39,436 bases of DNA from a virus (taxonomy: Duplodnaviria > Heunggongvirae > Uroviricota > Caudoviricetes), in IMG/VR virus record IMGVR_UViG_2537561944_000032; one strand, 5' to 3'. The notes under the pieces are model-generated. The model did no database searches. It was not told the DNA's origin and was given only the letters and a program-made list of their open reading frames with translations. This document shows, piece after piece, positions 701 to 21,358 of the stretch; position 1 is the first letter of the stretch, and each line of letters opens with the position of its first letter. A program made the translations under genes and the position numbers.

Positions 701-776
<76 letters not shown>

Positions 777-2889: not shown

Positions 2890-4029
2890 TCAGCTGCAAA
2901 TTTCGTTGTTGCTGCATGTTATCTCTTCAAGTGCAGCGGCGTTATAATCAACGGAATGATCAACCTGTGATGTAGGTCTGCCAAAAAATTCAACCCCTGA
3001 CATAATCATGTTGCCGATATTCTCTCGCTGTTTATCACTGAGCCTGTCCCACCACTCAGGGGATGAATATGTATTTTCGGCCTTTGTGAAGAAAAAATAC
3101 AGAAGGGTATTGAACATCCTGTTAGCTGGGATCTTAATTAGTGTCCGTATAAAACGTCTGATAATTGTTGAAGTTCTCAGCCAACTGAACACTACATATC
3201 CCTTACCTCCGCAGGAAAAAGCATTGAAACATACTTGTTCCGCCGACACTGTAAGATCGCTCAAATCCTGAATTTTGGTCCCATCGAAATCCCTCTCCGG
3301 TGAAAGAATTGACGAAACTACAATTGGTAAAGGCTCTGCAAAAGTGAAGATAACACTTTCAATTTCTGAAAATTGCCTGCTAAGTAGGATGCGGTCGAGG
3401 CTAGTTTTAAGATTATTTAATTCAATTATTGCTGCATTTAAGCCACTTTGGTGCTGGTCGATTAATTTCTGAATATAATACTGTTCAACTTGTAGCTTTC
3501 CTTTATCGGCATTTTTAGCAAAATCAGAAGATAGCACTCCCCCTTCTTTGGCATAAATTTCTTTAGACAATGAACGAAACATTAAGGCAAAGCACTGCTC
3601 GTCCGTGCCTGTAAATTTTTCGTTCTCTAGGCATGAAAATAAGATTCTGTCATGAACTGCACAAAATCCTGTAAAAGTGGATGCCTGATTGATACCGATC
3701 TTCTCGGGAAGCCATTTTCCGTTGTTTCTCATCAGGCTTGCTAAGTTCATTATCACCCCCATGACGTGATTGCTGGAGTCGGCGATCGCCTTAAGGCTAC
3801 TGCTCTTAGATATCGTATGCGCCTGAACGATGCGTTTATCACAATCTTCGTGCATGGATGCTGGCGCATAACATGCCTTTCTCTGCGAGAGAGACTTTGA
3901 AAATTTCAGTGCCTCGGCTTTGGATACCGGAGTTTCACGATCTCGACCAAGATGGCACTTTTTATACTTAAGTCCTGAATTACACCAGCACTTATCATTT
4001 CTTCCTAATTTCACTTTATTGTTTCCCAC
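2890..4029 (-). CDS. hypothetical protein with N-terminal SEC-C metal-binding motif (379 aa), cargo gene in AT-rich island
   Basis: ORF begins ...GRNDKCWCNSGLKYKKCH (CxC-x8-CH SEC-C motif); remainder has no family I recognise; region is markedly AT-rich relative to flanking phage genes; inserted between D and ogr, which are adjacent in P2. Start codon uncertain (GTG at 4029 or downstream GTG). Confidence 0.6.
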   Translation of the reverse strand: MGNNKVKLGRNDKCWCNSGLKYKKCHLGRDRETPVSKAEALKFSKSLSQRKACYAPASMHEDCDKRIVQAHTISKSSSLKAIADSSNHVMGVIMNLASLMRNNGKWLPEKIGINQASTFTGFCAVHDRILFSCLENEKFTGTDEQCFALMFRSLSKEIYAKEGGVLSSDFAKNADKGKLQVEQYYIQKLIDQHQSGLNAAIIELNNLKTSLDRILLSRQFSEIESVIFTFAEPLPIVVSSILSPERDFDGTKIQDLSDLTVSAEQVCFNAFSCGGKGYVVFSWLRTSTIIRRFIRTLIKIPANRMFNTLLYFFFTKAENTYSSPEWWDRLSDKQRENIGNMIMSGVEFFGRPTSQVDHSVDYNAAALEEITCSNNEICS

Positions 4030-5279: not shown

Positions 5280-5306
5280 TGAGGTAGCCTGAGTTTAACG
5301 GACACT
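5280..5306 (+). repeat. IS left terminal inverted repeat
   Basis: tgaggtagcctgagtttaacggacact; matches reverse complement of 6517-6543 at about 19/27 positions, including the terminal TGAGGT and the CGGACACT block. Confidence 0.7.
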
Positions 5307-5343
5307 CCTTCCTGAAATAGAATGGCATCAGAAGGAGCTAATA

Positions 5344-5646
5344 ATGAGCAGAAAAACCCAACGTTACTCTAAAGAGTTCAAAGCCGAAGCTGTCAGAACG
5401 GTTCTTGAAAATCAACTTTCGATCAGTGAAGGCGCTTCCCGATTATCTCTTCCTGAAGGCACTTTAGGACAATGGGTTACCGCCGCCAGAAAAGGGCTCG
5501 GTACTCCTGGTTCCCGCACGGTGGCTGAACTGGAATCTGAAATTCTGCAACTGCGTAAGGCGTTAAATGAAGCTCGCCTTGAGCGAGATATATTAAAAAA
5601 AGCAACAGCGTATTTTGCACAGGAGTCGCTGAAAAATACGCGTTAA
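5344..5646 (+). CDS. IS3-family transposase OrfA (HTH DNA-binding, 100 aa)
   Basis: MSRKTQRYSKEFKAEAVRTV...LERDILKKATAYFAQES; typical IS3 OrfA with leucine zipper; contains slippery A_AAA_AAA_G at 5595-5602. Confidence 0.85.
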   Translation: MSRKTQRYSKEFKAEAVRTVLENQLSISEGASRLSLPEGTLGQWVTAARKGLGTPGSRTVAELESEILQLRKALNEARLERDILKKATAYFAQESLKNTR

Positions 5647-6500
5647 TCGAACAATGGCGACAACAATTTCCCATTGAAGCGATGTGTCAGGTATTTGGTG
5701 TATCCAGGAGCGGTTATTACAACTGGGTACAGCATGAACCCTCAGACAGAAAACAAAGTGATGAGCGGCTAAAACTGGAGATTAAGGTGGCACATATCCG
5801 CACTCGCGAAACATATGGAACCCGGCGGCTCCAGACGGAGCTGGCAGAGAATGGCATCATCGTTGGTCGTGACCGACTGGCACGTCTTCGTAAGGAGCTA
5901 AGGCTACGCTGTAAGCAGAAACGCAAGTTCAGAGCGACTACGAACTCGAACCACAATCTGCCAGTTGCGCCAAATCTGCTGAACCAGACGTTCGCTCCTA
6001 CAGCACCAAATCAGGTCTGGGTGGCGGACCTGACGTATGTTGCCACACAGGAGGGATGGTTGTACCTCGCTGGCATCAAAGATGTTTATACGTGCGAAAT
6101 TGTCGGCTACGCCATGGGAGAGCGCATGACAAAAGAGCTGACAGGTAAAGCTCTGTTTATGGCGCTCAGGAGCCAGCGCCCACCTGCCGGGCTAATCCAC
6201 CACTCTGATCGAGGTTCACAGTACTGCGCATACGATTACCGGGTCATACAGGAGCAGTTTGGTCTGAAAACATCAATGTCGCGTAAAGGTAACTGTTACG
6301 ACAACGCTCCGATGGAAAGCTTCTGGGGAACGCTGAAAAATGAGAGCCTGAGCCACTATCGTTTTAATAACCGGGATGAAGCCATCTCAGTAATACGGGA
6401 ATACATTGAGATTTTCTACAATCGTCAGCGTCGTCACTCTCGTCTGGGGAATATCTCCCCGGCAGCCTTCAGGGAAAAATATCATCAGATGGCTGCTTAA
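5595..6500 (+). CDS. IS3-family transposase OrfB (DDE integrase domain), expressed as OrfAB fusion by -1 frameshift
   Basis: Frame -1 relative to orfA is open from 5583; reads KKSNSVFCTGVAEKYALIEQWRQQFPIEAMCQVFGVSRSGYY... with DDE catalytic core (HSDRGSQY...NAPMESFWGTLK); start coordinate given at the slip site. Confidence 0.8.
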   Translation, partial: KKSNSVFCTGVAEKYALIEQWRQQFPIEAMCQVFGVSRSGYYNWVQHEPSDRKQSDERLKLEIKVAHIRTRETYGTRRLQTELAENGIIVGRDRLARLRKELRLRCKQKRKFRATTNSNHNLPVAPNLLNQTFAPTAPNQVWVADLTYVATQEGWLYLAGIKDVYTCEIVGYAMGERMTKELTGKALFMALRSQRPPAGLIHHSDRGSQYCAYDYRVIQEQFGLKTSMSRKGNCYDNAPMESFWGTLKNESLSHYRFNNRDEAISVIREYIEIFYNRQRRHSRLGNISPAAFREKYHQMAA

Positions 6501-6516
6501 AAAAAGAACAAATGGT

Positions 6517-6543
6517 AGTGTCCGCTATTGCCAGTACACCTCA
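6517..6543 (+). repeat. IS right terminal inverted repeat
   Basis: agtgtccgctattgccagtacacctca; terminal CA; its last three bases create the TGA stop that truncates the gpD N-terminal fragment. Confidence 0.7.
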
Positions 6544-6952: not shown

Positions 6953-8137
6953 ATGAGTGAAACTCGTTTTCATGGTGCCCGTGTTACGGAAAGTACCGAC
7001 CTGGTAACAGCGATTAATGATGTTGATTCCAGTGTTATCGGTATCGTGGCAACGGCGGATGATGCGGACGCGGAGCTGTTCCCGCTGAACAAGCCCACAC
7101 TGCTGACCCGCGTCAATGACGTGCTGGGAAAATGCGGGACTACGGGGACGCTTTATCGTGCGCTTAAGGCTATTGCAGACCAGGTGAGCACAAAAGTGAT
7201 CGTCGTTCGCGTGGCTGAACACAAAGAAGAAGGCGGTAAGACGCAGGATCAACTGGTTATCGGTGGTTCTGAATCTGACGGCAGCTATACGGGGATGTAT
7301 GCGCTGCTTGTTGCAGAGCAGGATGAAAGCATCGGATACCGTCCGCGTATTCTGGCCGCGCCGGAGCTGGACACGGAGGCGGTGACAAAATCCCTGTGCG
7401 TGATTGCGGGTAAACTGCGCGCGTTTGTGTATGCCTCATGTCATGACTGTAACACGATGGCTGAGGCAATTACCTACCGCCAGAAATTCAACGAACGTGA
7501 GGTGATGCTCTTATGGCCGGACTTCATCGCCTACAACCCGAAAAGTGGCAAAAACGAAACGTTCCCCGCGCCTGCCTATGCGTGCGGCCTTCGTGCGTAC
7601 ATTGACCATGAGCAGGGCTGGCACAAATCGCTGTCCAACGTTCCTGTTAAAAATGTGCTGGGGATGTCCAGGCATGTTTTCTGGTCGTTGCAGGCCGAAG
7701 ACAGTGATGCCAACAGCCTCAACAACAAAGAAATCACGACCATTATTCGTCGCAACGGGTTCCGCTTCTGGGGCAACCGCACACCGGAAACGAACGCCTA
7801 CATCTTTGAGGTGTATACCCGAACCGCACAGGTGCTGGCTGATTCAATTGCGGAAGCGCAGTTTGAAACCATCGACAGTCCACTGACGCCTGCGAACGTG
7901 AAGGATGTTATCAGTGCCATCAGGGCAAAACTGGATTCGCTGGTTACTGCCGGGAAACTGATTGGCGCGGAGTGCTGGTATGACGTGGTGGATAACAGCA
8001 CCACGGATTTACGTCAGGGGCGTGTGCGTATTCGCTACAAATATACGCCCGTTCCGCCACTGGAAGACATGGAGCTTTACCAGACGTTTACTGATGAATA
8101 CTTTGAACCCGCATTTGCGGTGCTGGGAGGTGCCTGA
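6953..8137 (+). CDS. FI: contractile tail sheath protein (P2 gpFI-like)
   Basis: 394-aa ORF, size and sequence consistent with P2 FI (396 aa); followed directly by FII, E/E', T, U in P2 order. Confidence 0.85.
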   Translation: MSETRFHGARVTESTDLVTAINDVDSSVIGIVATADDADAELFPLNKPTLLTRVNDVLGKCGTTGTLYRALKAIADQVSTKVIVVRVAEHKEEGGKTQDQLVIGGSESDGSYTGMYALLVAEQDESIGYRPRILAAPELDTEAVTKSLCVIAGKLRAFVYASCHDCNTMAEAITYRQKFNEREVMLLWPDFIAYNPKSGKNETFPAPAYACGLRAYIDHEQGWHKSLSNVPVKNVLGMSRHVFWSLQAEDSDANSLNNKEITTIIRRNGFRFWGNRTPETNAYIFEVYTRTAQVLADSIAEAQFETIDSPLTPANVKDVISAIRAKLDSLVTAGKLIGAECWYDVVDNSTTDLRQGRVRIRYKYTPVPPLEDMELYQTFTDEYFEPAFAVLGGA

Positions 8138-8649
8138 TGGCTGTACCAAAACATCTTCGCTTTTTTACGCTGTTTGTGGATGGTGAAAACGAAGTGGGTA
8201 AGGTGACGTCCGTCACTCTGCCTAAGCTGACGCGCAAAACCGACAGCTACCGGGGTGGTGGCATGATGGGTGCGGTAAGTATTGATCTCGGTCTGGACGA
8301 CTCCGCGCTTGATGCGAGCTTTGTCATGGGGGGCGCAGTTCGTGAGCTGTTCCTTAAGTATGGCGGCACGATTGACGGCACGCTGCTGCGTTTTGCGGGT
8401 GAATATTACACCGATGCAGAAAGCGACCTGTATGAAGTCGAAATGCGCGGACGTGTGACGGAAATTGATATGGGGGAAGCCAAACAGGGCGAAGCCACAT
8501 CACACACTTACGCCATTAAAAACACCTACTACAAGCTGAGTGTTAACGATCGCCCGTTGTGGGAGATTGACCTGCTGAACTTCATTTACCGGAAGGACGG
8601 CAAGGACATTGTGCCCGATCGCATCCGTTCCGCGCTCGGGCTTGGCTGA
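8137..8649 (+). CDS. FII: tail tube protein (P2 gpFII-like)
   Basis: 170-aa ORF immediately after FI (ATGA overlap), size as P2 FII (172 aa). Confidence 0.85.
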   Translation: MAVPKHLRFFTLFVDGENEVGKVTSVTLPKLTRKTDSYRGGGMMGAVSIDLGLDDSALDASFVMGGAVRELFLKYGGTIDGTLLRFAGEYYTDAESDLYEVEMRGRVTEIDMGEAKQGEATSHTYAIKNTYYKLSVNDRPLWEIDLLNFIYRKDGKDIVPDRIRSALGLG

Positions 8650-8703
8650 TAAGTAATATGCAGGCGGCGCAGTGCGTCGCCTCTGACTGAAAGGAGTTTC
8701 CTG

Positions 8704-9069
8704 ATGAAAGAGACGAAAAACATCGATACCGAAAACACGGTAGTTGCTGACACTGTGAAAGAAACCAGTGAGCGTGGTGTAAAACTTACCCAACCAATTG
8801 AGCGAGGCGGCGAAAAAATCACGTATGTGGAGATCACCGGGGCTATTGAGCAGGCTGGATCTCTGCGAGATTTGTCGCTGTCTGATGTGCTGAATCTGAA
8901 AGCGGAATCCATGTTTACGCTGCTGTCACGCGTGACATCACCGCGACTGGATGAAGTGACGATCAAAAAAATGGCATCCCGTGACTTTATTCAGTTATGT
9001 GTGGTTGCCGTAAATTTTTTGAGCGGTGCGGACTCTGGCGGGAAGAACGAACAGGCGACGGAAGCCTGA
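8704..9069 (+). CDS. E: tail assembly chaperone gpE; gpE+E' produced by -1 programmed frameshift (8704..9021 joined to -1 frame ending 9233)
   Basis: Small acidic ORF between tube and tape-measure genes; slippery T_TTT_TTG at 9015-9021; -1 frame ORF 8997..9233 encodes conserved E' extension (FEHIEDFVADIAVIFNWSPAEIF). Confidence 0.8.
   Translation: MKETKNIDTENTVVADTVKETSERGVKLTQPIERGGEKITYVEITGAIEQAGSLRDLSLSDVLNLKAESMFTLLSRVTSPRLDEVTIKKMASRDFIQLCVVAVNFLSGADSGGKNEQATEA
9015..9021 (+). other. programmed -1 ribosomal frameshift slippery heptamer TTTTTTG (gpE to gpE+E')
   Basis: T6G in the 0-frame context aat ttt ttg; same heptamer and position as the P2 E/E' frameshift site. Confidence 0.75.
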
Positions 9070-9210
9070 TCACGGTTGTGTGCTTTGAGCACATAGAAGA
9101 CTTTGTGGCAGATATTGCCGTTATTTTTAACTGGTCGCCCGCCGAAATCTTCATGATGACGCCCGGCGAAGTGGTTAGCTGGCGTGAGCGGGCGGCACTT
9201 CGCAGCGGGA

Positions 9211-12027
9211 ATGCAGACAATGAAGACTCTTGATATCCGGGTCGCTTTCAGCGCCGTTGACAGGCTGACCCGGCCTGCCGAAAACGCCCGCCGCCTGATG
9301 GGGCAGTTTGGTGACTCCATCCAGCGAACGCAGGGGGCGATTAAAAATCTCGAGCGTCAGGCTCGTTCATTTGAGCGCGCCCGCGACGCTGTCAGTAAAG
9401 CGGATGCGGGTATCGTGAAAGCACGACGCCAGCTTAACGCCCTTAATCAGTTACAACGCACGGGTACAGTGCTCAGCGAAAAACAACAAAAGCTGATGCA
9501 GCAGTTAAGCACCCGGCTTGAACGCCTGAATGAATCGCGCACACGGGAAATTCAGAAAATGCGGGAGCTTGGCGGAGAGCTGAAACGCCACGGCATTTCC
9601 CTGACAGGCAGCGATAACACCATCCAGCAGGCCATCAGACGCACCGAACAGTACAACAACCAGCTTGAACGCGAACGGCAGGCGCTTGCGCGTGTAACGC
9701 GGGCGCGTAAGTGGTATTCGCGCGCGCAGGAAACCGCGGGAAAACTGAAAACAGGTGGTGCGCTGGCAATTGGTGCGGCAGCGGCGGGCGGCTATGCTGC
9801 CGGGCGTTTTTTGCAGCCCGCGATCGGGTTCGGCAAAGAGATGTCCCGCGTTCAGGCGCTGACGCGAATCGACCAGAACAGCCCGCAGTTTAAGGCGCTG
9901 CGTGAGCAGGCGTTAAAACTTGGCTCTGAAACGCAGTTCACCGCAGGCGATGCCGCCAGTGGGCAGGCATTTCTTGCAATGGCAGGCTTCACACCGCAGG
10001 CCATTCAGGCTGCGCTTCCCGGAGTGCTGAGCATGGCAACGGCTGGCGGTATGGATCTCGGCGAGACGGCGGATATTGGCTCAAATATCCTGACGCAGTT
10101 CGGCCTTTCTGCTGACCAGATGGACCGGGTCGGTGACACACTCACCGCAGCGTTTACCCGTACCAACACTGACCTTCGCGCACTGGGCGAAACCATGAAA
10201 TATGCAGGTCCGGTGGCGGGTAAGCTGGGAATATCGCTGGAGCAGGCCGCAGCGATGGCTGGTGTGCTGGCGAATATGGGCATCAGAGGGAGTGATGCCG
10301 GGACGGCAATGCGTGCCAGCCTGGCTCGTCTGGCATCACCGCCAAAGGCGGCGGCAGAAGCTCTGAAAGAGCTGGGCGTGTCCGTCTCGGATGCCGGGGG
10401 TAAAATGCGCCCGATGGAGGATGTGCTGGCCGACCTTTATAAAGCCACCCGCAAATACGGGGAAGTTGACCGGGTATCGTTCTTTAAGGACATTGCCGGA
10501 GAAGAGGCTTTCACATCGTTTATGGCGCTCGTTGATGCAGTGGGTGACGGTTCCTTACCCAAACTGAGAAAAGAACTTGAAGGCGCGCGCGGTGAGGCTG
10601 AACGCACAGCAAAGGTTATGGCCAACAACCTTGACGGCGATCTGAAATCACTCGGCAGTGCATGGGAAGGGTTGCGCATCCGCATTGCAGATCTGATTGA
10701 CGGTCCGCTGCGTTCTGTCACGCAGTGGCTCACGCGGGTGGTATCAAGGGTGACGGCGCTGGCGCAGGCCCATCCGGCACTGACGCGCCAGCTACTGATA
10801 GCAGGCGGTGCGTTGCTGGCAATGACTGCAACGGTTGGCTCGTTGTCGCTGGCTATTGGTGTGCTTGCTGGTCCGCTGGCAAAACTGCGTCTTGGTTTTT
10901 CTCTCCTGACCGGATCAATGAATGCTGTCAGGGTCCTGCCAGCACTATGGGGAATGGTGACGGGTTCCGTTTCTTTACTGGGAGGCGCTATCGGGGCGCT
11001 GTTCAGTCCGGTTGGTCTTATCGTGGCTGCGCTTGCCGGAGCTGCCGTCCTTATCTGGAAATACTGGGATCCCATCAGGGCATTTTTTGCCGGGGTGTTC
11101 AGCGGGATTATGGAAAGGCTGAACCCGTTGCGTGAAACCTTTGAACGGTTTGGCCCTGTTTTTGACGCAATCGGAAGCGGGATCAGCCAGGTGTTTAACT
11201 GGTTTAAATCGCTGCTGTCACCGATGGAGTCCAGCAAGGAAACGTTGGATAAATGTACCAGTGCTGGCGAGATATTCGGTAACGTTCTTGGCGGTGCGTT
11301 ACAACTTGTTCTGACACCTGCAAAAATGCTACTGGATACGCTGGCGTGGATACTTGAAAAACTTGGCGTCCTTCCGGATGAAGCGGAAAGGGCGCGCAAG
11401 AAAATCGAAGACGCACAGCGTGCGGCCATTCTTCAGGATAAGGTTGCCTTACTTCAGGGGGACCTGGCGAAAATCAATCCGCCGAAGCCTGTGGAAAATG
11501 GCAATGGCACCGGAGGTGATAAACCCAAAGACAACAAACCGCTCACAGACAGCAATACCGGGACGCTACGCAGACTCAGCAAAATTGCTGATAACACAGG
11601 TAAGCTGGTTGATGAGACGAAAAAACGCATTGGCCCCGGCGATATTGTCTTTAAGAACCTGCCCCGCGCACTTGCTGTTCGTGGGGAGTGGCAGGAGCGG
11701 AAGATTGCGCAGGTCAGTAAGCCTGCCCCCGCAATTAATATCACACCCGTAGTCCCGGCTCCGCTGCCTCCGGCGCTGGTCCCTGTTGTTGCGGCCAGCT
11801 CCCGCCCGGTGGCGGAGGCCATACGATCGCCAGTGGCATCAGTTCCTGCAGCTTCCCGTAATCGGGAGCCTGCTGTCTCCAGATTTGGCGGTGAAATTCA
11901 TGTTCATCTGCATAACGTTGTTACGCAGAATCCCCGCGAACTGGCGAAACTGGTCGGTGAAATGGTCAGGGCAGAAATGGAACGGCGCGCCCGTGCCGGG
12001 CGTGGCAGTTTTTACGATAAAGATTGA
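9211..12027 (+). CDS. T: tail tape measure protein (P2 gpT-like)
   Basis: About 940-aa protein with extended coiled-coil N-terminal half and Gly/Ala-rich hydrophobic segments; position between E' and U. Start ambiguous (ATG 9211 or 9220; ORF opens at 9184). Confidence 0.85.
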   Translation: MQTMKTLDIRVAFSAVDRLTRPAENARRLMGQFGDSIQRTQGAIKNLERQARSFERARDAVSKADAGIVKARRQLNALNQLQRTGTVLSEKQQKLMQQLSTRLERLNESRTREIQKMRELGGELKRHGISLTGSDNTIQQAIRRTEQYNNQLERERQALARVTRARKWYSRAQETAGKLKTGGALAIGAAAAGGYAAGRFLQPAIGFGKEMSRVQALTRIDQNSPQFKALREQALKLGSETQFTAGDAASGQAFLAMAGFTPQAIQAALPGVLSMATAGGMDLGETADIGSNILTQFGLSADQMDRVGDTLTAAFTRTNTDLRALGETMKYAGPVAGKLGISLEQAAAMAGVLANMGIRGSDAGTAMRASLARLASPPKAAAEALKELGVSVSDAGGKMRPMEDVLADLYKATRKYGEVDRVSFFKDIAGEEAFTSFMALVDAVGDGSLPKLRKELEGARGEAERTAKVMANNLDGDLKSLGSAWEGLRIRIADLIDGPLRSVTQWLTRVVSRVTALAQAHPALTRQLLIAGGALLAMTATVGSLSLAIGVLAGPLAKLRLGFSLLTGSMNAVRVLPALWGMVTGSVSLLGGAIGALFSPVGLIVAALAGAAVLIWKYWDPIRAFFAGVFSGIMERLNPLRETFERFGPVFDAIGSGISQVFNWFKSLLSPMESSKETLDKCTSAGEIFGNVLGGALQLVLTPAKMLLDTLAWILEKLGVLPDEAERARKKIEDAQRAAILQDKVALLQGDLAKINPPKPVENGNGTGGDKPKDNKPLTDSNTGTLRRLSKIADNTGKLVDETKKRIGPGDIVFKNLPRALAVRGEWQERKIAQVSKPAPAINITPVVPAPLPPALVPVVAASSRPVAEAIRSPVASVPAASRNREPAVSRFGGEIHVHLHNVVTQNPRELAKLVGEMVRAEMERRARAGRGSFYDKD

Positions 12028-12033
12028 GGAGTC

Positions 12034-12528
12034 ATGGCCATGATGATGATCTATGGCATGTTTGTTTTTGAGCTGCGCACGCTGCCGCATCAGCAGTTAC
12101 AGCAAAATAAAAGCTGGCGGCATGTGAAAAATGAACGCGTTAACCGTTCAGCAAGCTGGCAGTATATCGGTGCAGGTGATGATCGCATCGTTCTTTCTGG
12201 TGTGCTTTATCCTGAAATTACAGGTGGCGAAGTGTCGCTGTCTCTGCTGACCACGCAGGCGTATACAGGACGGCCCTGGCCTCTGATTGATGGCGTCGGG
12301 CAGATTTACGGCATGTATGTCCTGACCGAAACGAATACGACCCGCTCCGAGTTTGATCGCTACGGTAAGTCGAAAAAGATAGAATTTTCACTGACTCTTG
12401 AACGCTGTGATGAGGATTTGCGGGAGCGCCTGCAATCCTCATCGTTCAGCGATATGTTGTCCGGCTTCAAAGATAAGGTGACATCATCCCTTAATAGCGC
12501 GACCAGCTCAGTTAAGGGGCTGCTCTGA
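12034..12528 (+). CDS. U: tail protein gpU-like
   Basis: 164-aa ORF (MAMMMIYGMFVFELRTLPHQ...) resembling P2 gpU (159 aa); directly after tape measure. Confidence 0.8.
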   Translation: MAMMMIYGMFVFELRTLPHQQLQQNKSWRHVKNERVNRSASWQYIGAGDDRIVLSGVLYPEITGGEVSLSLLTTQAYTGRPWPLIDGVGQIYGMYVLTETNTTRSEFDRYGKSKKIEFSLTLERCDEDLRERLQSSSFSDMLSGFKDKVTSSLNSATSSVKGLL

Positions 12529-12684: not shown

Positions 12685-13257
12685 GTGCTGTCTTACTTAA
12701 TGGCAATTCACTTTGCTTTATTTGGGGACTCTACTAATTTAAAAAACTTCTGGAAATATGAAGTAATTCGGCGGAAACGTATGGATATCTGGAGGCTTTT
12801 AAGAGAGAAAAAACAGCGTAACCGGAATTTCCTTTTCTGGTGGCGGTTGGCTAACGAAATGTATATTAATGGTAATAAATTACATAAGAAAGCAGCCAAA
12901 AAGTTAAACAGTAAAATAATTAACAAATTTGGTTGTGAAATTGGATTGGGCGCAAATATTGGAAAAGGGTTAACAATTCCCCATCATGCTGGAATTGTTG
13001 TTCATTTTGCTGTTGATGCTGGTGAAAATCTGGTGTTACGACAGAATACTACCATTGGACAGATAGATGGTGACATGCCTGGTTCAAGAGTAAAAATTGG
13101 TAGTAACGTTGATATCGGAGCTAATTGTTGCATCATTGGATTATCACGTAAAATTGGGGATAATGTAAAAATAGGTGCAATGTCTTTTATAAATAAAGAT
13201 ATACCATCGAACTGCACATATATAACTAAAAAGAGCGGTGTTGTATTGTATAAATAG
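12685..13257 (+). CDS. hexapeptide-repeat (left-handed beta-helix) acetyltransferase, CysE/LacA/WcaB-like; cargo gene
   Basis: Repeated [LIV]-G-x-x-x-x-I hexapeptide units (IGKGLTIPHHAGIVV...VKIGSNVDIGANCCIIG...KIGDNVKIGAMSF); GTG start at 12685 with AAGGAG RBS (ATG at 12700 alternative); region 12570-13260 is strongly AT-rich; followed by hairpin terminator. Confidence 0.75.
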   Translation: MLSYLMAIHFALFGDSTNLKNFWKYEVIRRKRMDIWRLLREKKQRNRNFLFWWRLANEMYINGNKLHKKAAKKLNSKIINKFGCEIGLGANIGKGLTIPHHAGIVVHFAVDAGENLVLRQNTTIGQIDGDMPGSRVKIGSNVDIGANCCIIGLSRKIGDNVKIGAMSFINKDIPSNCTYITKKSGVVLYK

Positions 13258-13265
13258 AGTACATA

Positions 13266-13300
13266 AAGCCATCTATATTTCAATCGATGGCTTTTTCTCT
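13266..13300 (+). terminator. rho-independent terminator after acetyltransferase gene
   Basis: gccatc...gatggc stem followed by TTTTTCTCTTTATT. Confidence 0.55.
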
Positions 13301-13879
13301 TTATTGTGGGGCGACTGGCCACTCAACATCCGCTGCTACCGCTGTATTAACACGATTCAACAATACCCGGTATGTCTTCCATGCAGCCAGTAACGATGCC
13401 TCTTCCTCCGTTGCAATATCCAAATCTACGGCATCCTGAAGTGGCGCAATATGCTCGCTGGCTACCTGCATCAGGCTGTTTTTTGTTTCTTCCGCCTCCC
13501 TTATCCGAAACAGTTTTTCTGCTTCTGCATCTTTCACCCAGGATGTGCCGTTCCACTTCTGATACTCTCCATACGGCGACAACCAGGTAACATTTTCCGG
13601 TAATGGACCGAGTTCAGAAATAAATAACGAGTCCCCTGATGCCACGTCATAAACCGTTTTACCCCGATGGTCTTCAACGAGATGCCACGATGCCTCATCA
13701 CTGTTGAAAACGGCCACGAAGCCAGCCGGAATATCTGGCGGGGCAATATCGGTACTGTTTGCAGGCAGACCTGTATGAGGTGGAATGTATGCATCACCTT
13801 CACCAATAAACTCATTGGTTCCGGTCAGTAGATTATAAATTTTTATGGTCCGTGAGTGTTCACTCATTCTGAATGTCAT
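13301..13879 (-). CDS. G: tail fiber assembly protein (P2 gpG-like)
   Basis: 192-aa ORF immediately downstream of the tail fiber gene on the same strand; typical size and position of gpG/Tfa. Confidence 0.75.
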
Positions 13880-16011
13880 TATGCAAGCCTCACAATATAG
13901 TTAAATGCGATGTTTTTTACGGTGTTTTCTTCGTTACCCGTAGCGTTAACGGTGATGGTGTGTCCGTGGGGACCAATAATGACAGAATGGGCATGAGCAC
14001 CAATGCCGATAGTGTGGTTATGGGCACCGATATATACATTGTGAGCATGCTCGCCTGCGCTCGACGTGGTACCAGTACCTAACGCAGCGTTATAACCGGC
14101 TGATACACCATTCCCCGCGCCAGTGTGACCAACAGGTATATTGTGTGAATGATTTCCAGCGCTATTCGTAGTTTTTGTGCCGTAATCAAATGAACTGGTC
14201 GTTTTAGTACCGTAATCAAACGACGATGTGGTTTTCGTCCCCAAATCCGTACTGGATGCGCTGGCGCTGTGGGTGTGCGATTTAATGCCGTCCTGTTCCT
14301 GAGACAATACGGCACGACCACTGCCGGGCTTGCCCTTAATCGTCCAGCCACGCATATCAGGAATAACGCCTGACGGATAAGCGACTGCAAGTTTCGGGTA
14401 TGCAGATTTGTCAAAAGTCTGCCCCTGCATCAGGGCATAACCAGACGGAACGGTATCTGATGGCCACGGAATCGGTGCACCGACTGGATAAAACTCTTCA
14501 GGAGGATGAGCCGAGGTGTAAAGCTGCGCCCACGGCGACCAGTTTGCGTCGGGCGTATCCCGTCGTGAACGAATAAATGCCGGAGCATGAGCACCGCTTA
14601 TACCACTCCAGCCGATGAGTAATTCGCCTTCGCCAACGGCTGTCATCCCTTTCAGGTGAATGATATTTCCATACGTTGTTGGATATCCGTTGTTATACGC
14701 CTCGTATAACTCCAGACCTGTGGCCCCCTGCATATTATCTGTCAGGGCGGTCAGCCGACCTTTTGAAGCCAGATTAACTGACGATACTGCTGTCCCATCT
14801 GACGGTAACGCCCCGATCTCTGATGCTGTTGGCTTATTCCTGGAGTTATAGTCCCTTCGCCAGCCAGGAGCATAAGCATCACCATGATTAATATAAGTAA
14901 ATTGAGCATTAGGGATGCCTTCACCGCTGGATGTACTCGGTGTGGTAATGCGTATGGTCATTGCGCCGCGGGTGCCAATAACTTCCACAACAGCACCTGC
15001 AAGACAAATACTTCCGCAACCTGTATCTGTAATGACCTTATTATTTGCATAAGCCCATGAGCCTTTGCACATCCAGTAAGGATGGTTAAATGCCCCCTGA
15101 CTCTCTAGCCAAAAAATCAACTGCGCAGTTGTCCATGCTTCACTATCTCCACCAATATTCAGCTCTGCACTATATGCACGGCAGGCACCGATATTTTTCG
15201 TAAAGGTGTCTTTATCAGAGATATCCTCACCATTCTTAGCTTTCTGCAGACGTTTTTCAGCATTGTCATAGGCAGCTTTTACTGCATTTGATGTTGCCGC
15301 CAGCGTTTCAGATGTACTGTTGGTTGCACTACTAAGCTGGACAAGGCCTTTTCGCGCTGTTGTGGCATCCTGCGCTGTATATTTTCCGTTAGCAAGATCA
15401 TACGCGACCTTAACCGCTTTCGGCGTTGCAGCCAGCGTTTCAGAATCGCTGTTAGTGGCGCTACTGAGTTGAACAAAGCCTTTTGCGGTCAGCGAGGCAT
15501 CCGGGTGACATCGTGACTGTTCATGCTCTTTCAGTTCGTTATCCACGTAATCCACTGTGGCCATCACCATGGTGTTATCCACGGTAAGCGCCACAGTGGC
15601 AGTGCTGGATACGGTCAGAATGGTGCGAAATGTTTGTGCACGTCCGGACCCTTCGGCAACGGCTGGCTTGTAACTTTCGGCAGTATTGCCCACCGCGATT
15701 AAATCGCCGTGCTCATCAAACACACCAATTTCCCGGATCCAGAATCCGCCCGTTTCTGGAGGAATAACCAGCTCCGCAATAATGCGGTTCTGATGTGTTG
15801 CGTCCAGGATGACGCGATTAACAGTGTGTCGCCACACCTCATGCACCAGACGGGTCTGCTTACTGTCTGGTGTGGGCAACGCGCCGCCACCGTCGCCCAC
15901 GGCCATATGAGTCAGGCGGACAGGCTTACCATCTGGCGCGGCTGCCTGAGCTAATTTTTTGGCACCTGTATCGGTGATAACGGTTTTAAATTTTCGTGTT
16001 GTGGTACTCAT
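13879..16011 (-). CDS. H: tail fiber protein (P2 gpH-like) with divergent His-rich C-terminal receptor-binding tip
   Basis: N-terminal two-thirds match P2 gpH as I recall it, including the duplicated [23 protein letters not shown] segment; C-terminus carries HxH repeats ([33 protein letters not shown]). Confidence 0.9.
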
Positions 16012-16013
16012 GC

Positions 16014-16544
16014 TTAATCGTCCGGATAAATGGTAATAACTTCACCGTCATGAGTTGCCGCCGCTGCAAAAATATCCCCCGGAATTTCCTGAATGATATT
16101 CAGCCCTGTCATGTGGCGGCTGACCGGACGGGCATCAGCAATCAACCGCTCCATTTCCAGATACATTTCCTCCGTCACGCCACTGTCCAGTGTGCCGACT
16201 TCAACGGTAAATGTTCCCGGTTCTCCGCCGAACTCCCACCACTCAGACACGCGAATGAGGTATCCCAGCGGCTCAATGGCCCTGCGCAGTGCGCTGATGG
16301 TCCCTTTGTGTCGGTGTATCAGCCATGCATCACGAATCACCTGTCGTTTTGTCTCTTCCGGCCAGTTGCGATCCCAGCGGTCAACGGAAAATGCCCAGGC
16401 GAGATAAGGCAGCAGGTGCACCGGGCAGGTGTCCGGCGACCACAGCGTGTTGAGGTCTACCGGGATGTCTGTAATGCGCGTTCCGACAGCTTCGGCACAA
16501 CGCATGAAACTGCTGGCTGATGGTGGTAACAGTGAATTACTCAT
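16014..16544 (-). CDS. I: baseplate assembly protein gpI-like
   Basis: Position between J and H; about 176 aa from Met at 16544 (MSNSLLPP...), P2 gpI size. Confidence 0.8.
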
Positions 16545-17433
16545 TGCGCCCACCTTCGCTGATGGTGAACGACTCACAGCGCGCCGCCTGTATGTCGCTG
16601 ATGGCCATATTCTGTGTGGGTTCGATTATCTCCACGCGTTGCACACCGTGCACATGCAGTGCGGCAGCAATGGCGGACAACGCCACGTCCTGACCGATAA
16701 GCCCCTGCTCAGCCAGCCACTTCCTGAACGACGATTCAGCCGCCGCCAGAATAGGTTCGGATTCCGGGCCGGGGTAAAAGTACAGTTTTGCATTCAGCCG
16801 CCATGTCACGATTCTGGCGCTCTGTACCGTCAGGCGGTCGGCCACCGGGCGGGTATCCTCTGCATTCAGAACGGCGCGAACGGTATTAAGCAACGCCTCC
16901 GTTGCTGTGCCGTCGCCTTCAGTGGACAGGATGGAAACCGTCACATTTGCCGGAGACGGACTGATAGCCCGCGCATCACGCACCAGACCGCTGGCGCTGC
17001 GGGCAAAATACTCGTATGCACCTGACGGGCCAGCAACACTCAGGCCATCGTACGCCCGCTGCGCCCGCAGTCTCAGCGAGGTGTCACTTTCCATCACTGC
17101 GTCGGTGGTATCCGTTGCCGGAGTGATGGTCAGGCGCTTTGTGTTCATATTGCCCGCGAGGTTGTCCAGGTCTGTCCCGGCGCTGTGGCTTAACATGCAG
17201 GCGCGTGCCCCCTCATTGACCCGCTGGCGTAACAGCATTTCACGAAACGCTGTTGTCTGGGCGATAACGTTCAGGGGTTCCGATTCCAGCTCCAGCGCGG
17301 CGGAGACGGCTTCACGCTGTTCGGCAGGATAGGACGCAATCATCATGGCCTTTGTGTCAGCCAGAATTGCCTCAAAGTCAGGCTCCGCGATGATGGCGGG
17401 TTCCGGTAACTGGGAAAGGTCAACGGCAGGCAT
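16537..17433 (-). CDS. J: baseplate protein gpJ-like
   Basis: 298-aa ORF between W and I; size matches P2 gpJ (302 aa). Confidence 0.85.
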   Translation of the reverse strand: MPAVDLSQLPEPAIIAEPDFEAILADTKAMMIASYPAEQREAVSAALELESEPLNVIAQTTAFREMLLRQRVNEGARACMLSHSAGTDLDNLAGNMNTKRLTITPATDTTDAVMESDTSLRLRAQRAYDGLSVAGPSGAYEYFARSASGLVRDARAISPSPANVTVSILSTEGDGTATEALLNTVRAVLNAEDTRPVADRLTVQSARIVTWRLNAKLYFYPGPESEPILAAAESSFRKWLAEQGLIGQDVALSAIAAALHVHGVQRVEIIEPTQNMAISDIQAARCESFTISEGGRNE

Positions 17434-17436
17434 GAT

Positions 17437-17787
17437 TTACTCCCTCAGCGTGATGGTTAATTCAACATTCTGCATGGTCTGCATGACAGTGCCCGACAGC
17501 GTCACCCCGGCGCGGCCTCCTGCCTTCCAGACAACGTCGATGGCGTCCAGGGCAATGCGGGGTTCCCATCGTGTCAGCGCAATCACGGCAGCACTCATGC
17601 ATTGCAGACGAGTGGTGTTATTCATGGGTTCGTCAATTAAATCGGGCACAAGGCTGCCATATTCCCGTCGCATAACCCGGCTTGCCAGCGGGGTGATCAG
17701 GATGTCCCTGACTGACTGTTTCAGATGCTCCATATCGTTCAGGTTTCCCGTTCCGTCCGGGTTCATTCCTGTGTAGCGGGTTGTCAC
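17437..17787 (-). CDS. W: baseplate wedge protein gpW-like (gp25/lysozyme-like fold family)
   Basis: 116-aa ORF between V and J; P2 gpW is 115 aa. Confidence 0.85.
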   Translation of the reverse strand: MTTRYTGMNPDGTGNLNDMEHLKQSVRDILITPLASRVMRREYGSLVPDLIDEPMNNTTRLQCMSAAVIALTRWEPRIALDAIDVVWKAGGRAGVTLSGTVMQTMQNVELTITLRE

Positions 17788-18365
17788 TGCGGGCCTCCTG
17801 TCGAATCGCTGCCACCTTTAACGCCACCATGTTTATGCGTATGCACTGTGATGCCGTTTGAGGTGAAATTGCCGCCGCTGTGCGTGATATTGCCGCTCAT
17901 CTTTCCCCCTTTTGTGACGTCAAGCGTCGCCGTTCTCAGAAGGTCTGTGCATTCCACGACGGGCGTGTCCAGTGTCACACTGACGGATGCCTGCAGGGTG
18001 GCCGTTTTCATGCCGCTGGCGCTCAGTGCGCCTGCGTCCGCGTCGTAGCGGAACACCGCGCCATCCGGCGCGCTGACCACGATTTCTTTCAGGCTTTTGC
18101 CGGGGGCCGGATTGGCATCACTCCACAGGCTGCCAATTATCATGGCGGTTTCCGGGTTGCCGCCAATGCAGGCAATTACCACCTGTTCGCCGGGTGATGG
18201 CGGCAGCCACACATTGAAGGCTCCCGCGCGCGTGGTGTTCCAGCGCAACCAGCCTGTTTCCAGTTCGCCGCTGCGAACGCGCACGCACCAGGACTTCTCA
18301 TCAACTTCAGAGATGATCCCGGTGCGGATGATGTTGCTCAGCAGTCGCATGAGTTCTGCGCTCAC
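17784..18365 (-). CDS. V: baseplate central spike protein gpV-like
   Basis: 193-aa ORF upstream of W with Gly-rich C-terminus; P2 gene order S-V-W-J-I-H-G. Confidence 0.8.
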   Translation of the reverse strand: MSAELMRLLSNIIRTGIISEVDEKSWCVRVRSGELETGWLRWNTTRAGAFNVWLPPSPGEQVVIACIGGNPETAMIIGSLWSDANPAPGKSLKEIVVSAPDGAVFRYDADAGALSASGMKTATLQASVSVTLDTPVVECTDLLRTATLDVTKGGKMSGNITHSGGNFTSNGITVHTHKHGGVKGGSDSTGGPQ

Positions 18366-19006
18366 CGTACAGCCTCCGCAATCCGGCCCAGCACCGTGTT
18401 ATAAATCAGGCGTTCATCTGCCTGACTGATGCCCAACAGCTCACGTACCGGGTAATCGGTGAAAATGCCCGGCGCAACCTGATCGCGCTCACCGAACTGA
18501 TGAACGCGGGCAATACGTGCGGCCACGCCGCTGTAACCCACCGTCACACCGGAAGCATCTGCACGGGCTTTCAGGTAGCGGGCGGTGCGCAGTTTTACGA
18601 ACATGGGGACGCGCTTTGTGCTGTCCTGGTTGATGCGCCGGGTGCGTATTTCCAGAAAGCGGTCGATGTCATCCCGGTAAAACGTGCGGATATTGTTTTT
18701 ATCCTCATCCCACCCGGTAATGGTTCGCCCGTATTTCCCCGTGTCGTGATGCCAGTTTTTCAGCGTGCGTGCTTCGTTATTCCAGATAAAGCGAATGCGC
18801 TCCTGTATCCGGGTTACGCGGCGTCTGCGTGGTGTCCACGCGGTCCCGTCCGGCGCTTTCTGTGACCGGATACGCGCCTGCTGGGCGCGGCGTAAATCCT
18901 GTGCCAGCTTTCTGGCGATGTTATTGATGGCCTGCTGATTCAGGCTGTCGCGGATAGCCTCAAAGGTTTCATCCACGCGGGTGAATGCCTTATCCATCGC
19001 TTTCAC
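18362..19006 (-). CDS. S: tail completion / virion morphogenesis protein gpS-like
   Basis: Basic 214-aa ORF between R and V in conserved P2 order. Confidence 0.7.
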   Translation of the reverse strand: MKAMDKAFTRVDETFEAIRDSLNQQAINNIARKLAQDLRRAQQARIRSQKAPDGTAWTPRRRRVTRIQERIRFIWNNEARTLKNWHHDTGKYGRTITGWDEDKNNIRTFYRDDIDRFLEIRTRRINQDSTKRVPMFVKLRTARYLKARADASGVTVGYSGVAARIARVHQFGERDQVAPGIFTDYPVRELLGISQADERLIYNTVLGRIAEAVR

Positions 19007-19480: not shown

Positions 19481-21358
19481 TTACGCTGCAGGACTATTTA
19501 TTTCCAGCACCAGACTTTCTATCTCAACGCCATACGTTGCATTTTTGGTAATATCCGTCAGCGTCAGTGCATTCAGCCCCAGTGTCAGACTGTCTTTTAT
19601 GACCTGGAATGCCGGGCCAGCCACTCCATTCAGTTTCGGAGTAACCGTGGCACTGCTGGCGGTGAACACCAGCTCCAGCGTCTGCCAGTCGTTACTGTAA
19701 TTCCCGAACTCGCCCAACTTTGTGTTTCCTGCTTTCTTGTGATGCATCAGATTCAGTTTGCCGTCTGTGGTCTGGGTGAAGAACGACATCAGGAACGGGT
19801 TACCAGTCCCGGTCATCGCCACGACGTCAGGTAACGCTACATCGGTATACAGATAAATTCCCAGACCGAACTGATTGTTGGTCAGTGCGCCTGACAGGCG
19901 GAACTTACAGGTCAGTCTGCCGCCCTGTGTCAGCAGGGTAATTGCGTCATCCACCGGATGCGTCAGGGACCAGGTTTTATTGCTCTGCTTGGTGATCTTA
20001 AATACACCATCTGACAACTGAATTCCGCCATCCTTAATGCTCCAGCCCTGCGCAGCAGCCTCTCCGGCTGCCGGCAGCAGGGAGATTGTGCGAACGGACG
20101 TATCTGCAGACGGACCCGATGGCGTGTTGCCGCCGGGCGAGGGTTTGATTTCCGGTGCCTTACCACTGATGAAGGCTAAGGTGCGACCGGCTACGTTCAG
20201 AATAGCGGTTGCCATACGATCCGGAATAATGCTCCTGCGCGCCCATGAACTGAAATGCGTCTGGCGATTTGATGATACCCAGTTTTTGTTCGTTCGGGAT
20301 GCCGAACCGTAATATCCCTCACTTGCAGCATCCGGATCTTCCGTTGGTGCGTTGGTGGAGGTATTGTTGCCACTACCATCGGTCAGGAATGGCACAAAGA
20401 AAACGTTGTCGCTCTCCCTGTTTTTGTACGCCCCGTAAATGGTGTCGTACTGCGTGCCGTAGGTGTTTTTCCAGTAATACGTCGTGTCACCACAAATCCA
20501 TGGCACACTTGCCGCTCTGCCTCCATGACACTGCGTGTTAAACTCGGTAATGTCCGCACGAAACTGTTTCAGCATGGCCGCAAACAGCGGAGGTTGCTGT
20601 GAGTACGTAGCGGCGCTCATGTCAAATTCGCCCTGCATCCAGCATACGGCCAGCAGCATGTTTTTTGGGTTTTTCTGCAATGCGGCCTTCGTGCGCAAAA
20701 TCAGGTCCTGATATAAAGGTTTACCCACACCCCAGCGAGCCGAATCCTGACTGGCTCCTGTGGACTCGCTGAATGTCCCCTCCGCGCCCTGGGTGAATGC
20801 CGAACCACCACGACAGCATGGAACCAGTAAAATCCCGGCATTCTGTGGAATGTAAGGCAACAGGCGTTTGGCAATATGCAAGCCCTGTCCGACACAGCCA
20901 TACTGCCCTTTGCTCAGGTCTGCATTCGGGTGATTCAGTACGCTCATATCCTGAACATCATGCAGGCAGTGATCTGCCGGAATGATGTCGTTAAATGCGC
21001 ATGCTTTACCACCGGGAGTCACTGTGTTGCGACGGGCCAGTTGCTTAATGCGTGGGTGGGGCGCATCGTAAGAATCCGGCAGCGGCATTCCCTCACCATA
21101 TGACATGGCATTGGATTGACCAGCAAGTACCACCACGTAATACCACTCCGGCACGCTGCCGTGCTGGGGGGAATCAGGTGAGATGTCTGTAGTGCCATCG
21201 GCCACCATTGCCTGCATTAGATACCACGGGGTGCCGGGTTCGTAGGCAACCCGCGTCTCCCCCTGAAGATGCCACCCTTTCGCAAGATGTTCATTCACCT
21301 TTTGAGTCAGTTCAGCCTGTGTCATGGCTGTAATCAGTGCAAAGTTCTTACTGGTCAT
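19481..21358 (-). CDS. prophage NanS-p-like protein: N-terminal DUF1737 + SGNH-hydrolase/sialate O-acetylesterase-like domain + C-terminal beta-rich domain (625 aa); cargo gene
   Basis: N-terminus MTSKNFALITAMTQAELTQKVNEHLAKGW resembles DUF1737; VVLAGQSNAMSYG contains the GQSN motif of the DUF303/SASA esterase family; inserted between lysC and R, which are adjacent in P2. Confidence 0.7.
   Translation of the reverse strand: MTSKNFALITAMTQAELTQKVNEHLAKGWHLQGETRVAYEPGTPWYLMQAMVADGTTDISPDSPQHGSVPEWYYVVVLAGQSNAMSYGEGMPLPDSYDAPHPRIKQLARRNTVTPGGKACAFNDIIPADHCLHDVQDMSVLNHPNADLSKGQYGCVGQGLHIAKRLLPYIPQNAGILLVPCCRGGSAFTQGAEGTFSESTGASQDSARWGVGKPLYQDLILRTKAALQKNPKNMLLAVCWMQGEFDMSAATYSQQPPLFAAMLKQFRADITEFNTQCHGGRAASVPWICGDTTYYWKNTYGTQYDTIYGAYKNRESDNVFFVPFLTDGSGNNTSTNAPTEDPDAASEGYYGSASRTNKNWVSSNRQTHFSSWARRSIIPDRMATAILNVAGRTLAFISGKAPEIKPSPGGNTPSGPSADTSVRTISLLPAAGEAAAQGWSIKDGGIQLSDGVFKITKQSNKTWSLTHPVDDAITLLTQGGRLTCKFRLSGALTNNQFGLGIYLYTDVALPDVVAMTGTGNPFLMSFFTQTTDGKLNLMHHKKAGNTKLGEFGNYSNDWQTLELVFTASSATVTPKLNGVAGPAFQVIKDSLTLGLNALTLTDITKNATYGVEIESLVLEINSPAA

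Follow-up and report, generated by a model that had tools for sequence, protein, structure and literature searches.

We analysed a stretch of viral DNA of 39,436 nucleotides (IMG/VR record IMGVR_UViG_2537561944_000032, Caudoviricetes), called the window in what follows. The element that carries the locus of interest is an EHEC E. coli prophage resembling P88 (Xuanwuvirus, P2 family). The locus holds a tail fibre gene, a chaperone gene and a convergent acetyltransferase gene. Their features are given below in window positions, with residue numbers referring to the fibre protein.

12685..13257, plus strand: gene for a hexapeptide-repeat (CysE/WcaB-like) O-acetyltransferase, convergent with tfa (NCBIfam/Pfam, RefSeq)
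13301..13879, minus strand: gene for the tail fibre assembly chaperone (Tfa), 192 aa (Pfam Caudo_TAP, PF02413, E 1e-39)
13879..16011, minus strand: tail fibre gene, counterpart of gpH, 710 aa, reading frame free of internal stops (open reading frame and Pfam domains)
15250..16011, minus strand: aa 1-254, module next to the baseplate, native in the P88/P2 lineage (gpH identity, Pfam)
14788..15267, minus strand: aa 249-408, part of the shaft, a homologue of the S' fibre of phage Mu (PDB 8JU3)
13879..14493, minus strand: aa 507-710 and the stop codon, distal tip of T4 gp37 / lambda Stf type, made of collar, needle and head (PDB 2XGF)
14281..14493, minus strand: aa 507-577, first part of the collar domain (Pfam Collar; T4 gp37 D10 boundaries)
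13933..14280, minus strand: aa 578-693, needle domain with all six HxH motifs (aligned with T4 gp37 D11, 882-1009)
14161..14250, minus strand: aa 588-617, three 10-aa units of DxGTKTTxS type in the predicted ascending strand of the needle (translation)
14050..14142, minus strand: aa 624-654, hypervariable head, presumed receptor-contact region (T4 alignment, length variation)
13882-13932, minus strand: aa 694-710, collar return (T4 gp37 D10 boundaries via alignment)
14269-14277, 14143-14151, 14041-14049, 14014-14022, 13987-13995 and 13960-13968, minus strand: codons of the six HxH motifs

The fibre gene follows the baseplate genes J and I, with Tail_P2_I and Baseplate_J open reading frames upstream, and its product is 100% identical to WP_000108514.1, named 'phage tail protein' and encoded in strain O26:H11 11368 of E. 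coli as well as in many other EHEC genomes. The FI-U tail genes are convergent. A rearrangement was considered as the cause and rejected; this is the normal Xuanwuvirus (P88) layout, and no inverted repeats were found flanking these genes. Gene D of the window is split by a 1264-bp IS3-family element, and for that reason the fibre may never be assembled from this particular copy. The same interruption would suit a reading in which the prophage is decaying and the gene rides along as a passenger, its fibre function lost and its features relics. We consider this unlikely, given that the fibre and tfa reading frames are both intact, that the exact 710-aa protein occurs unchanged on at least 1000 contigs and the gene is identical in many complete genomes, and that strain 11368 harbors the same prophage without the element and with a complete late-gene set. 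Whether the window copy is expressed is, moreover, irrelevant to the identity of the protein.

The fibre is a mosaic. Its N-terminal part has the Phage_tail_fib domain (PF12571, aa 6-153, E 7e-54) and two matches to Phage_fiber_2 (PF03406, E 3e-39, best stretch aa 173-213), which appear in the alignment with P2 as two adjacent repeats at about aa 173-250. The P88 gpH is 94% identical to the fibre over aa 1-254 and the P2 gpH 71% identical over aa 7-254, and protein comparison with each gpH revealed no similarity distal to aa 254. The PF12571 domain and the position after J and I are those of a Peduoviridae gpH N-terminus, and the N-terminal 254 residues, the place in the genome and the Xuanwuvirus gene layout are shared with the gpH of P88 and P2. 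The distal (receptor-binding) half is not of P2 type. The initial annotation had taken the N-terminal two-thirds of the protein to be P2-like and the C-terminal ~150 residues to differ; the P2/P88-like part is in fact 36% of the fibre, and the residues unlike P2 number about 460.

The shaft and distal parts have relatives elsewhere. Residues 177-333 of a chain of PDB 8JU3 (Tail fiber protein S / S') correspond to aa 249-408 of the fibre (domain E 3.5e-81), and the side tail fibres of mEp460 and PhiR26_1, both lambdoid, are colinear with the whole of aa 171-710 at ~76%. By its sequence, then, the distal part of the fibre is one that was swapped in by exchange. The receptor-binding domain swap proposed in the initial annotation is upheld: similarity to the gpH of P2 and P88 stops at about aa 254 and the tip cassette is common to a P1-like plasmid. 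Residues 1-254 are the native P88/P2-type part that fixes the fibre to the baseplate, and the region from about aa 250 to 710 was gained by recombination from a pool of side-tail-fibre modules to which lambdoid phages, Mu and P1 contribute.

We also considered whether the breakpoint near aa 250 was once the crossover site of an invertase. No gix/cix-like site was found with up to 2 mismatches allowed, the interval from tfa to gpU contains neither an invertase nor an alternative tip, and this origin of the breakpoint was rejected. The fibre is not of the invertase-switched kind known from Mu (Gin), P1 (Cin) and P88. In P88 the fibre genes are followed by an alternative tip, another tfa copy and the gene of a DNA invertase; at that place the prophage described here has the acetyltransferase instead.

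A phmmer search matched aa 507-710 to the crystallised tip of T4 gp37 (PDB 2XGF) at E 7e-78, and a MAFFT alignment gave 70% identity over 203 aligned residues. The lambda Stf protein (orf-314) is 65% identical over aa 508-710; at the DNA level lambda is 85-89% identical to the tip in both flanks of the head, and the DNA of the head itself does not align. Pfam Collar (PF07484) matches aa 511-558 (E 3e-11; score 43.5 bits, cut-off 24), and the boundaries of the collar were transferred through the MAFFT alignment from T4 gp37 D10 as delimited in the published description of that domain (811-881 and 1010-1026; PMC6957217). All elements of the T4 tip (811-1026), namely the collar, the HxH needle, the small head and the C-terminal 15-residue sequence, are present here, and in both phages a dedicated chaperone gene lies directly downstream. 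What the initial annotation called reminiscent of the metal-coordinating tips of T4-like fibres is, more strongly, a direct homologue of the T4 gp37 and lambda Stf tips. By these alignments the HxH end is a receptor-binding tip of an ordinary kind, well described from T4 gp37 and lambda Stf, and is set on a P2-family base.

The differences are those of detail and of setting. T4 gp37 has seven HxH motifs and the fibre six, with a third DxGTK unit at the position of T4 His915/917; the descending His boxes are four, all 9 residues apart, compared with spacings of 14, 9 and 9 in T4; and the head comprises 31 aa rather than 34, with a different sequence. The chaperone is of the lambda Tfa type (PF02413), unlike that of the T4 gp37 system, and the tip is carried by a 710-aa P2-family fibre instead of a 1026-aa distal half-fibre. 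Lambda Stf differs in its eight HxH motifs and in the length of its head region, where the fibre is the shorter of the two and the alignment needs 44 gap positions; the lambda protein is the side fibre of a siphovirus, whereas here it is the baseplate fibre of a myovirus with a different proximal part. More than 200 phage receptor-binding proteins have only their last ~215 residues in common, diverge in the specificity region and are encoded next to a chaperone gene (PMC9659904). The fibre resembles this family in all these respects: homology does not extend beyond the last ~215 residues, the specificity region is where divergence is centred, a conserved chaperone gene is directly 3', and the module sits on unrelated phage backbones. 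For annotation purposes, the RefSeq name 'phage tail protein' could become 'P88/P2-type tail fibre with lambda Stf / T4 gp37-type receptor-binding tip'. Beyond annotation the significance is little.

The six HxH motifs start at aa 579, 621, 655, 664, 673 and 682, the last four exactly 9 apart, and 13 of the 25 histidines of the fibre lie in its last 140 residues, the part encoded by the region that the initial annotation had singled out. Shuffling the whole protein yielded a mean of 0.84 HxH motifs, six being reached in 3 of 20,000 shuffles; shuffling the last 140 residues alone yielded a mean of 1.1, and 2 of 20,000 reached six. The His-rich C-terminus with regular HxH pairs that had been pointed out is confirmed, the quoted 31-residue peptide being exact and the motifs numbering six against an expectation of about one. 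Two of the six belong to the ascending and four to the descending set; five align with T4 motifs, and every HxH is aligned between T4 and the fibre except T4 His915/917. The histidines of these motifs are invariant in 33 homologues.

In published descriptions of the T4 gp37 tip, the HxH motifs of three chains hold iron ions inside the needle, seven ions in all (PMC6957217, PMC11705849). The homologies, motif positions, mosaic breakpoints and lack of copy-number variation are shown by the sequences; from homology with T4 gp37 we infer metal binding, a trimeric needle fold, strand pairing and a class of receptor for the fibre, the end of which would be the receptor-binding part of a mosaic trimeric tail fibre. 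The chain is predicted to leave the collar (aa 507-577), run up the needle (aa 578-623), pass through the head, come down again (aa 655-693) and finish with aa 694-710 in the collar. All six HxH motifs would face the three-fold axis, where each motif, contributed by three chains, would hold a single octahedral metal ion with six histidines (the metal is iron in T4), amounting to six predicted ions per fibre compared with seven in T4. An AlphaFold2 monomer model of aa 501-710, built on a 33-sequence alignment, scored low (pLDDT 50, pTM 0.20), as is expected of a monomer model that is unable to represent an intertwined, metal-bound trimer, and lends the predicted fold no independent support.

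It has been proposed for fibres bearing HxH motifs that the iron-loaded needle is itself the ligand, a mimic of an iron-siderophore complex by which the fibre would dock on a receptor for siderophores (the 'Ferrojan horse'; PMC11705849). The six motifs of the fibre would be compatible with this proposal, but the homologues vary mainly in the head and not in the His boxes, which are invariant, a pattern that fits a structural role, and we regard a ligand function of the needle as very improbable here. The small variable head (aa 624-654) is the part that would touch the receptor. The head is the largest gap between HxH motifs, aligns with the specificity region of T4 gp37 (932-965), and among 111 homologues varies from 31 to 50 aa in length and is hypervariable in sequence. 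LPS core, an outer-membrane porin or both would be the most likely receptor. For host-range engineering, the exchangeable unit would start exactly at the collar domain (about aa 507) and the specificity element would be the 31-residue head.

The three 10-residue units of the needle require separate consideration. A 25-residue stretch within them is a perfect repeat at the peptide level, and the array as a whole is near-perfect. The PF03406 model, a repeat of about 40 aa, had no match to aa 588-617 in the Pfam search of the fibre, and the units are therefore a different repeat. Their DNA is considerably more diverged: units 2 and 3 are identical at 22 of 30 nt (73%), with synonymous differences in 5 of 10 codons, and unit 1 matches these two at 17 and 15 of 30 nt. 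The longest exact run repeated among the units is 11 nt. Tandem Repeats Finder reported no repeat in the region even at a minimum score of 30, and a repeat search recovered only the one 30-nt pair at 73%. The initial annotation had described a tandemly duplicated 10-aa unit that was perfect at the DNA level. The location and the perfection of the peptide stand; that of the DNA does not, and at 15-22 of 30 nt these are not near-identical copies able to misalign.

Lambda Stf has the same three units at the same positions, the DNA of unit 1 being identical at 30 of 30 nt and that of unit 3 at 25 of 30. In T4 there are two such units, with a His box at the place of unit 3 of this fibre. The repeat is an old, fixed structural element. 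Its three units would form the His-free ascending strand of the needle and lie alongside the four descending His boxes with their 9-residue spacing, acting as structural rungs whose number would be fixed by the need for strands of equal length. They would best be treated as fixed rungs and not as a tunable tract. Taken as a whole, we hold it to be highly probable that the protein is a mosaic trimeric fibre with a tip of the T4 gp37 / lambda Stf kind and a fixed structural repeat.

A different view, raised in the initial annotation, is that the 30-bp units are a contingency tandem repeat in which slippage or unequal recombination alters needle length and host range. The near-perfect peptide array invites this view, distant homologues do differ in having two units (T4-type) or three (lambda-type), and host-range mutants of T4 arising by duplications in gene 37 have been described (Tetart et al. 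1996, as cited in PMC5221442). Against it stand the low DNA identity of the units (50-73%) with exact runs of at most 11 nt, the synonymous codon differences between units 2 and 3, the empty Tandem Repeats Finder output and the one-for-one correspondence with the lambda units. The distribution of copy number points in the same direction. All 111 scored homologues have three or two units (split 99 and 12), and these two discrete states go each with a matching number of descending His boxes. When His-box spacing was compared in 113 tails (110 complete homologous tails, lambda, T4 and this fibre), 96 had three units with four 9-spaced descending boxes and 13 had two units with three; in the single exception to the coupling, a His-to-Tyr change hides a motif. 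This coupling is weak evidence for strand pairing, since it may reflect just two ancestral architectures and not repeated independent co-variation.

There was no copy-number polymorphism among close relatives, the comparison that the initial annotation had called for. Three units were present in 29 of 29 checked, comprising 17 of 17 nearest cluster representatives (identity 93-100%) together with 12 of the 13 cluster members listed; the thirteenth is a short fragment without the repeat region. We also searched 5,426 complete E. coli genomes for recombinant junctions with 50-nt queries that cover crossovers in the 11-nt microhomology only. A junction with 30 nt gained or lost occurred in 0 records at ≥99% identity, as opposed to 177 records for the wild-type junction. 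These matches were read by identity band; query coverage, which by design was assumed to fall under 80%, was uninformative because BLAST extended wild-type DNA through mismatches. With diverged DNA copies, three units in close relatives and no +30 or -30 junction, the sequence data do not support expansion and contraction of the repeat. The contingency reading is already largely refuted, and we assign it a negligible probability.

The remaining genes of the locus appear to travel with the tip. The start codon of tfa overlaps the stop codon of the fibre gene, and its product is 88% identical to lambda Tfa (orf-194) and resembles P2 gpG in the last 66 residues only (42%). This lambda-type Tfa would act as the folding and trimerisation chaperone of the fibre, and the gene can be named accordingly. 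The neighboring acetyltransferase is called 'serine O-acetyltransferase' in RefSeq; its NCBIfam and Pfam matches all fall under the curated cut-offs. The P1-like plasmid pE2865-1 has a 1.8-kb cassette that corresponds to window positions 12693-14490 at 94%, with an edge exactly at the collar domain, that is, at the left edge of the tip (aa ~507). The acetyltransferase gene, tfa and the tip also occur together in the P1-like phages Ro157c2YLVW and JL22. A tentative proposal, which we consider rather unlikely, is that the cassette is a self-contained mobile host-range unit whose acetyltransferase might modify the receptor of the tip (a sugar of LPS or polysaccharide). If true, acetylation of the receptor would protect lysogens from superinfection or stop the re-adsorption of released virions, and the enzyme as a receptor-modifying partner of the tip is the one question of some wider appeal. 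Both the P88-like prophage and P1-like phage-plasmids from the same EHEC strains have the cassette, at the position taken in P88 by an invertase-driven fibre switch.

The region under study (window 13879-14300) is the 3' end of a minus-strand tail fibre gene, labelled 'tail fiber protein' by PHROGs, upstream of which lie the P2-type baseplate genes I and J. The 710-aa product is 100% identical to WP_000108514.1, a 'phage tail protein' of E. coli O26:H11 11368 and many other EHEC genomes, and the exact protein occurs in at least 1000 E. coli and Shigella contigs. The features of the fibre and of its assembly gene are as follows; the boundaries of tip parts are those of T4 gp37, carried over through a MAFFT alignment.

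13879-16011, minus strand: tail fibre ORF, 2133 nt, 710 aa (ORF call)
aa 6-153, minus strand: N-terminal Phage_tail_fib domain (Pfam, E 7e-54)
aa 173-213 (best stretch), minus strand: two Phage_fiber_2 repeats (Pfam)
aa 511-558, minus strand: Collar domain (Pfam, E 3e-11)
aa 507-577 and 694-710, minus strand: collar (transferred from T4 gp37)
aa 578-693, minus strand: needle (transferred from T4 gp37)
aa 624-654, minus strand: head (transferred from T4 gp37)
aa 588-617, window 14161-14250, minus strand: three 10-aa repeat units (sequence inspection)
13301-13879, minus strand: tail fibre assembly protein gene tfa, Caudo_TAP, downstream of the fibre gene (Pfam)

A search of all PDB sequences matched fibre residues 507-710 to the crystal structure of the T4 gp37 receptor-binding tip (2XGF, E 7e-78), with 70% identity over 203 residues aligned by MAFFT, and these comparisons establish both the homologies and the anatomy of the tip. 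The T4 tip consists of a collar (811-881 plus 1010-1026) and an elongated needle (882-1009) along which seven iron ions are held by histidines from all three chains, and its tip residues bind LPS and OmpC (PMC6957217; PMC5221442; PMC11705849). The lambda side tail fibre (Stf, orf-314) is 65% identical to residues 508-710 and carries the same three repeat units, and the lambda Tfa chaperone is 88% identical to the product of the downstream ORF. This tip family, with more than 200 phage members, was defined by homology that does not extend beyond the last ~215 residues, a divergent specificity region and a chaperone gene adjoining the fibre gene (Magaziner and Salmond 2022, PMC9659904). The fibre end adds one more member, on a P2-family base, to the T4 gp37/lambda Stf tip family, whose structure is well known.

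The histidine-rich peptide with regular HxH pairs reported in the initial annotation was quoted exactly. Six HxH motifs start at residues 579, 621, 655, 664, 673 and 682, the last four spaced by exactly 9 residues, and 13 of the 25 histidines fall within the last 140 residues. The pattern is not due to chance: shuffles of the whole fibre gave a mean of 0.84 motifs and reached six in 3 of 20,000 cases, and shuffles confined to the His-rich last 140 residues gave a mean of 1.1 and reached six in 2 of 20,000. Because T4 gp37 has counterparts for five of the six motifs, and its HxH at His915/917 is replaced in the fibre by the third DxGTK unit, the fibre is predicted to have six metal sites instead of seven.

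The relationship of the fibre to P2 was narrower than the P2-like N-terminal two-thirds previously proposed. Alignment with P2 gpH was limited to residues 7-254 (71% identity) and with P88 gpH to residues 1-254 (94%), the segment that belongs to the phage's own lineage. Beyond it, the phage Mu S' fibre (PDB 8JU3) matches residues 249-408 (domain E 3.5e-81), and lambdoid side tail fibres such as those of mEp460 and PhiR26_1 are colinear with residues 171-710 at ~76%. Lambda DNA matches window 13317-14004 at 89% and 14142-14481 at 85%, and showed no alignment in the head-coding stretch between 14004 and 14142. These mosaic matches therefore bear out the suggestion of a swapped receptor-binding domain, with distal matches to lambdoid, Mu and lambda fibres and P88/P2 likeness only to residue 254; the swapped part makes up almost two-thirds of the fibre, and the pieces are nested in one another.

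The 10-aa tandem duplication, described as perfect at the DNA level, was correctly located and is indeed perfect as peptide over 25 residues, but not as DNA. Between units 2 and 3, 22 of 30 nucleotides agree and five of ten codons differ synonymously, and unit 1 matches units 2 and 3 at 17/30 and 15/30; no exact repeat is longer than 11 nt (TTTGATTACGG). Tandem Repeats Finder reported nothing over the region, and a separate repeat search gave one pair at 73%. The units correspond to those of lambda Stf: unit 1 is identical to lambda unit 1 (30/30 nt), and unit 3 shares more nucleotides with lambda unit 3 (25/30) than with unit 2 of the fibre (22/30). The triplication is therefore older than the split from lambda Stf. 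Purifying selection on a structural element accounts for the perfection at the peptide level.

Copy number was scorable in 111 of the 120 best homologous cluster representatives. The His-free stretch was 39 residues (three units) in 99 and 29 residues (two units) in 12, and no third state was seen among the 111. Two units accompanied three descending His boxes at 9-residue spacing in 13 of 13 tails (T4 counted), and three units accompanied four such boxes in 96 of 97 (lambda and this fibre counted), a His-to-Tyr substitution masking one motif in the single exception. We infer length matching between ascending and descending needle limbs; the two states may also be merely two ancestral architectures, so the covariation argues weakly for such matching. 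The 17 nearest cluster representatives (93-100% identity) all had three units, as did 12 of the 13 members listed for a cluster of 343, the remaining one being a short fragment without the repeat. A search for the wild-type junction of units 2 and 3 across 5,426 complete E. coli genomes gave 177 records at ≥99% identity; the junctions expected if 30 nt were lost or gained through the 11-nt microhomology reached at best 96% and 94%, respectively, and these matches were ordinary junctions of the same or other alleles. With copy number constant in close relatives and no recombinant junction in the genomes searched, the proposed capacity of the repeat to expand or contract is not supported, and is refuted as far as the data reach.

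In the mechanism we propose, the P88-type N-terminus would anchor the fibre, and the distal end would form a trimeric collar-needle-head tip, its core stapled by six putative His6-metal sites. Folding would be driven by the lambda-type Tfa, and the 31-residue head would set receptor choice. Metal binding, trimeric fold and receptor class are here transferred by analogy from T4 and lambda; the monomer as modelled by AlphaFold2 was uninformative (pLDDT 50).

The prophage follows the standard Xuanwuvirus (P88) layout, FI-FII-E-T-U convergent with V-W-J-I-H-G. Unlike in P2, the tail and baseplate blocks are convergent and gene D is divergent from FI. The neighbouring features are:

6953-12528, plus strand: tail sheath, tube, tape-measure and U genes, convergent with the baseplate/fibre genes (13301-19000, minus strand)
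12685-13257, plus strand: predicted CysE/WcaB-like hexapeptide O-acetyltransferase gene, convergent with tfa (sequence similarity)
5280-6543: IS3-family element of 1264 bp in late gene D (orfA 5344-5646, orfB 5682-6500)

In P88, the interval between tfa and gpU contains a second tfa, a DNA invertase and an alternative fibre tip that the invertase switches, whereas at this position the prophage carries only the acetyltransferase gene; no invertase or gix/cix-like site was found in the prophage. The acetyltransferase, tfa and the tip from its first collar residue form a cassette (window 12693-14490, 1798 nt) that recurs at 94% identity on the P1-like plasmid pE2865-1, whose EHEC host also bears this prophage. 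The three genes are likewise adjacent in the Punavirus (P1-like) phages Ro157c2YLVW and JL22, and the acetyltransferase may act in partnership with the tip by modifying the receptor (lysogenic conversion). Many E. coli genomes, O103:H2 among them, encode a much shorter 'phage tail protein' of 284 aa that terminates in this same tip allele (98-100% identical). Thus at least three fibre bases bear the tip, of 710 aa (Xuanwuvirus prophage), 949 aa (P1-like elements) and 284 aa.

The prophage of strain O26:H11 11368, otherwise 99.97% identical, is without the IS3-family element, and the flanks of the element overlap by 3 bp, which suggests a target-site duplication; the interrupted copy is probably defective and not rescuable. 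A 625-aa ORF (window 19481-21358, minus strand) annotated only as 'DUF6645 domain-containing protein', for which an NCBIfam search gave no match, separates the lysis genes from tail gene R, where P2-family prophages typically carry cargo genes. Two further features are unusual as accessory content in a P2-type prophage: a gene for a YecA-family protein between gene D and ogr (window 2890-4029, minus strand), and ParM-like and plasmid-partition genes that adjoin the replication endonuclease gene in the early region (near 30580-31539).
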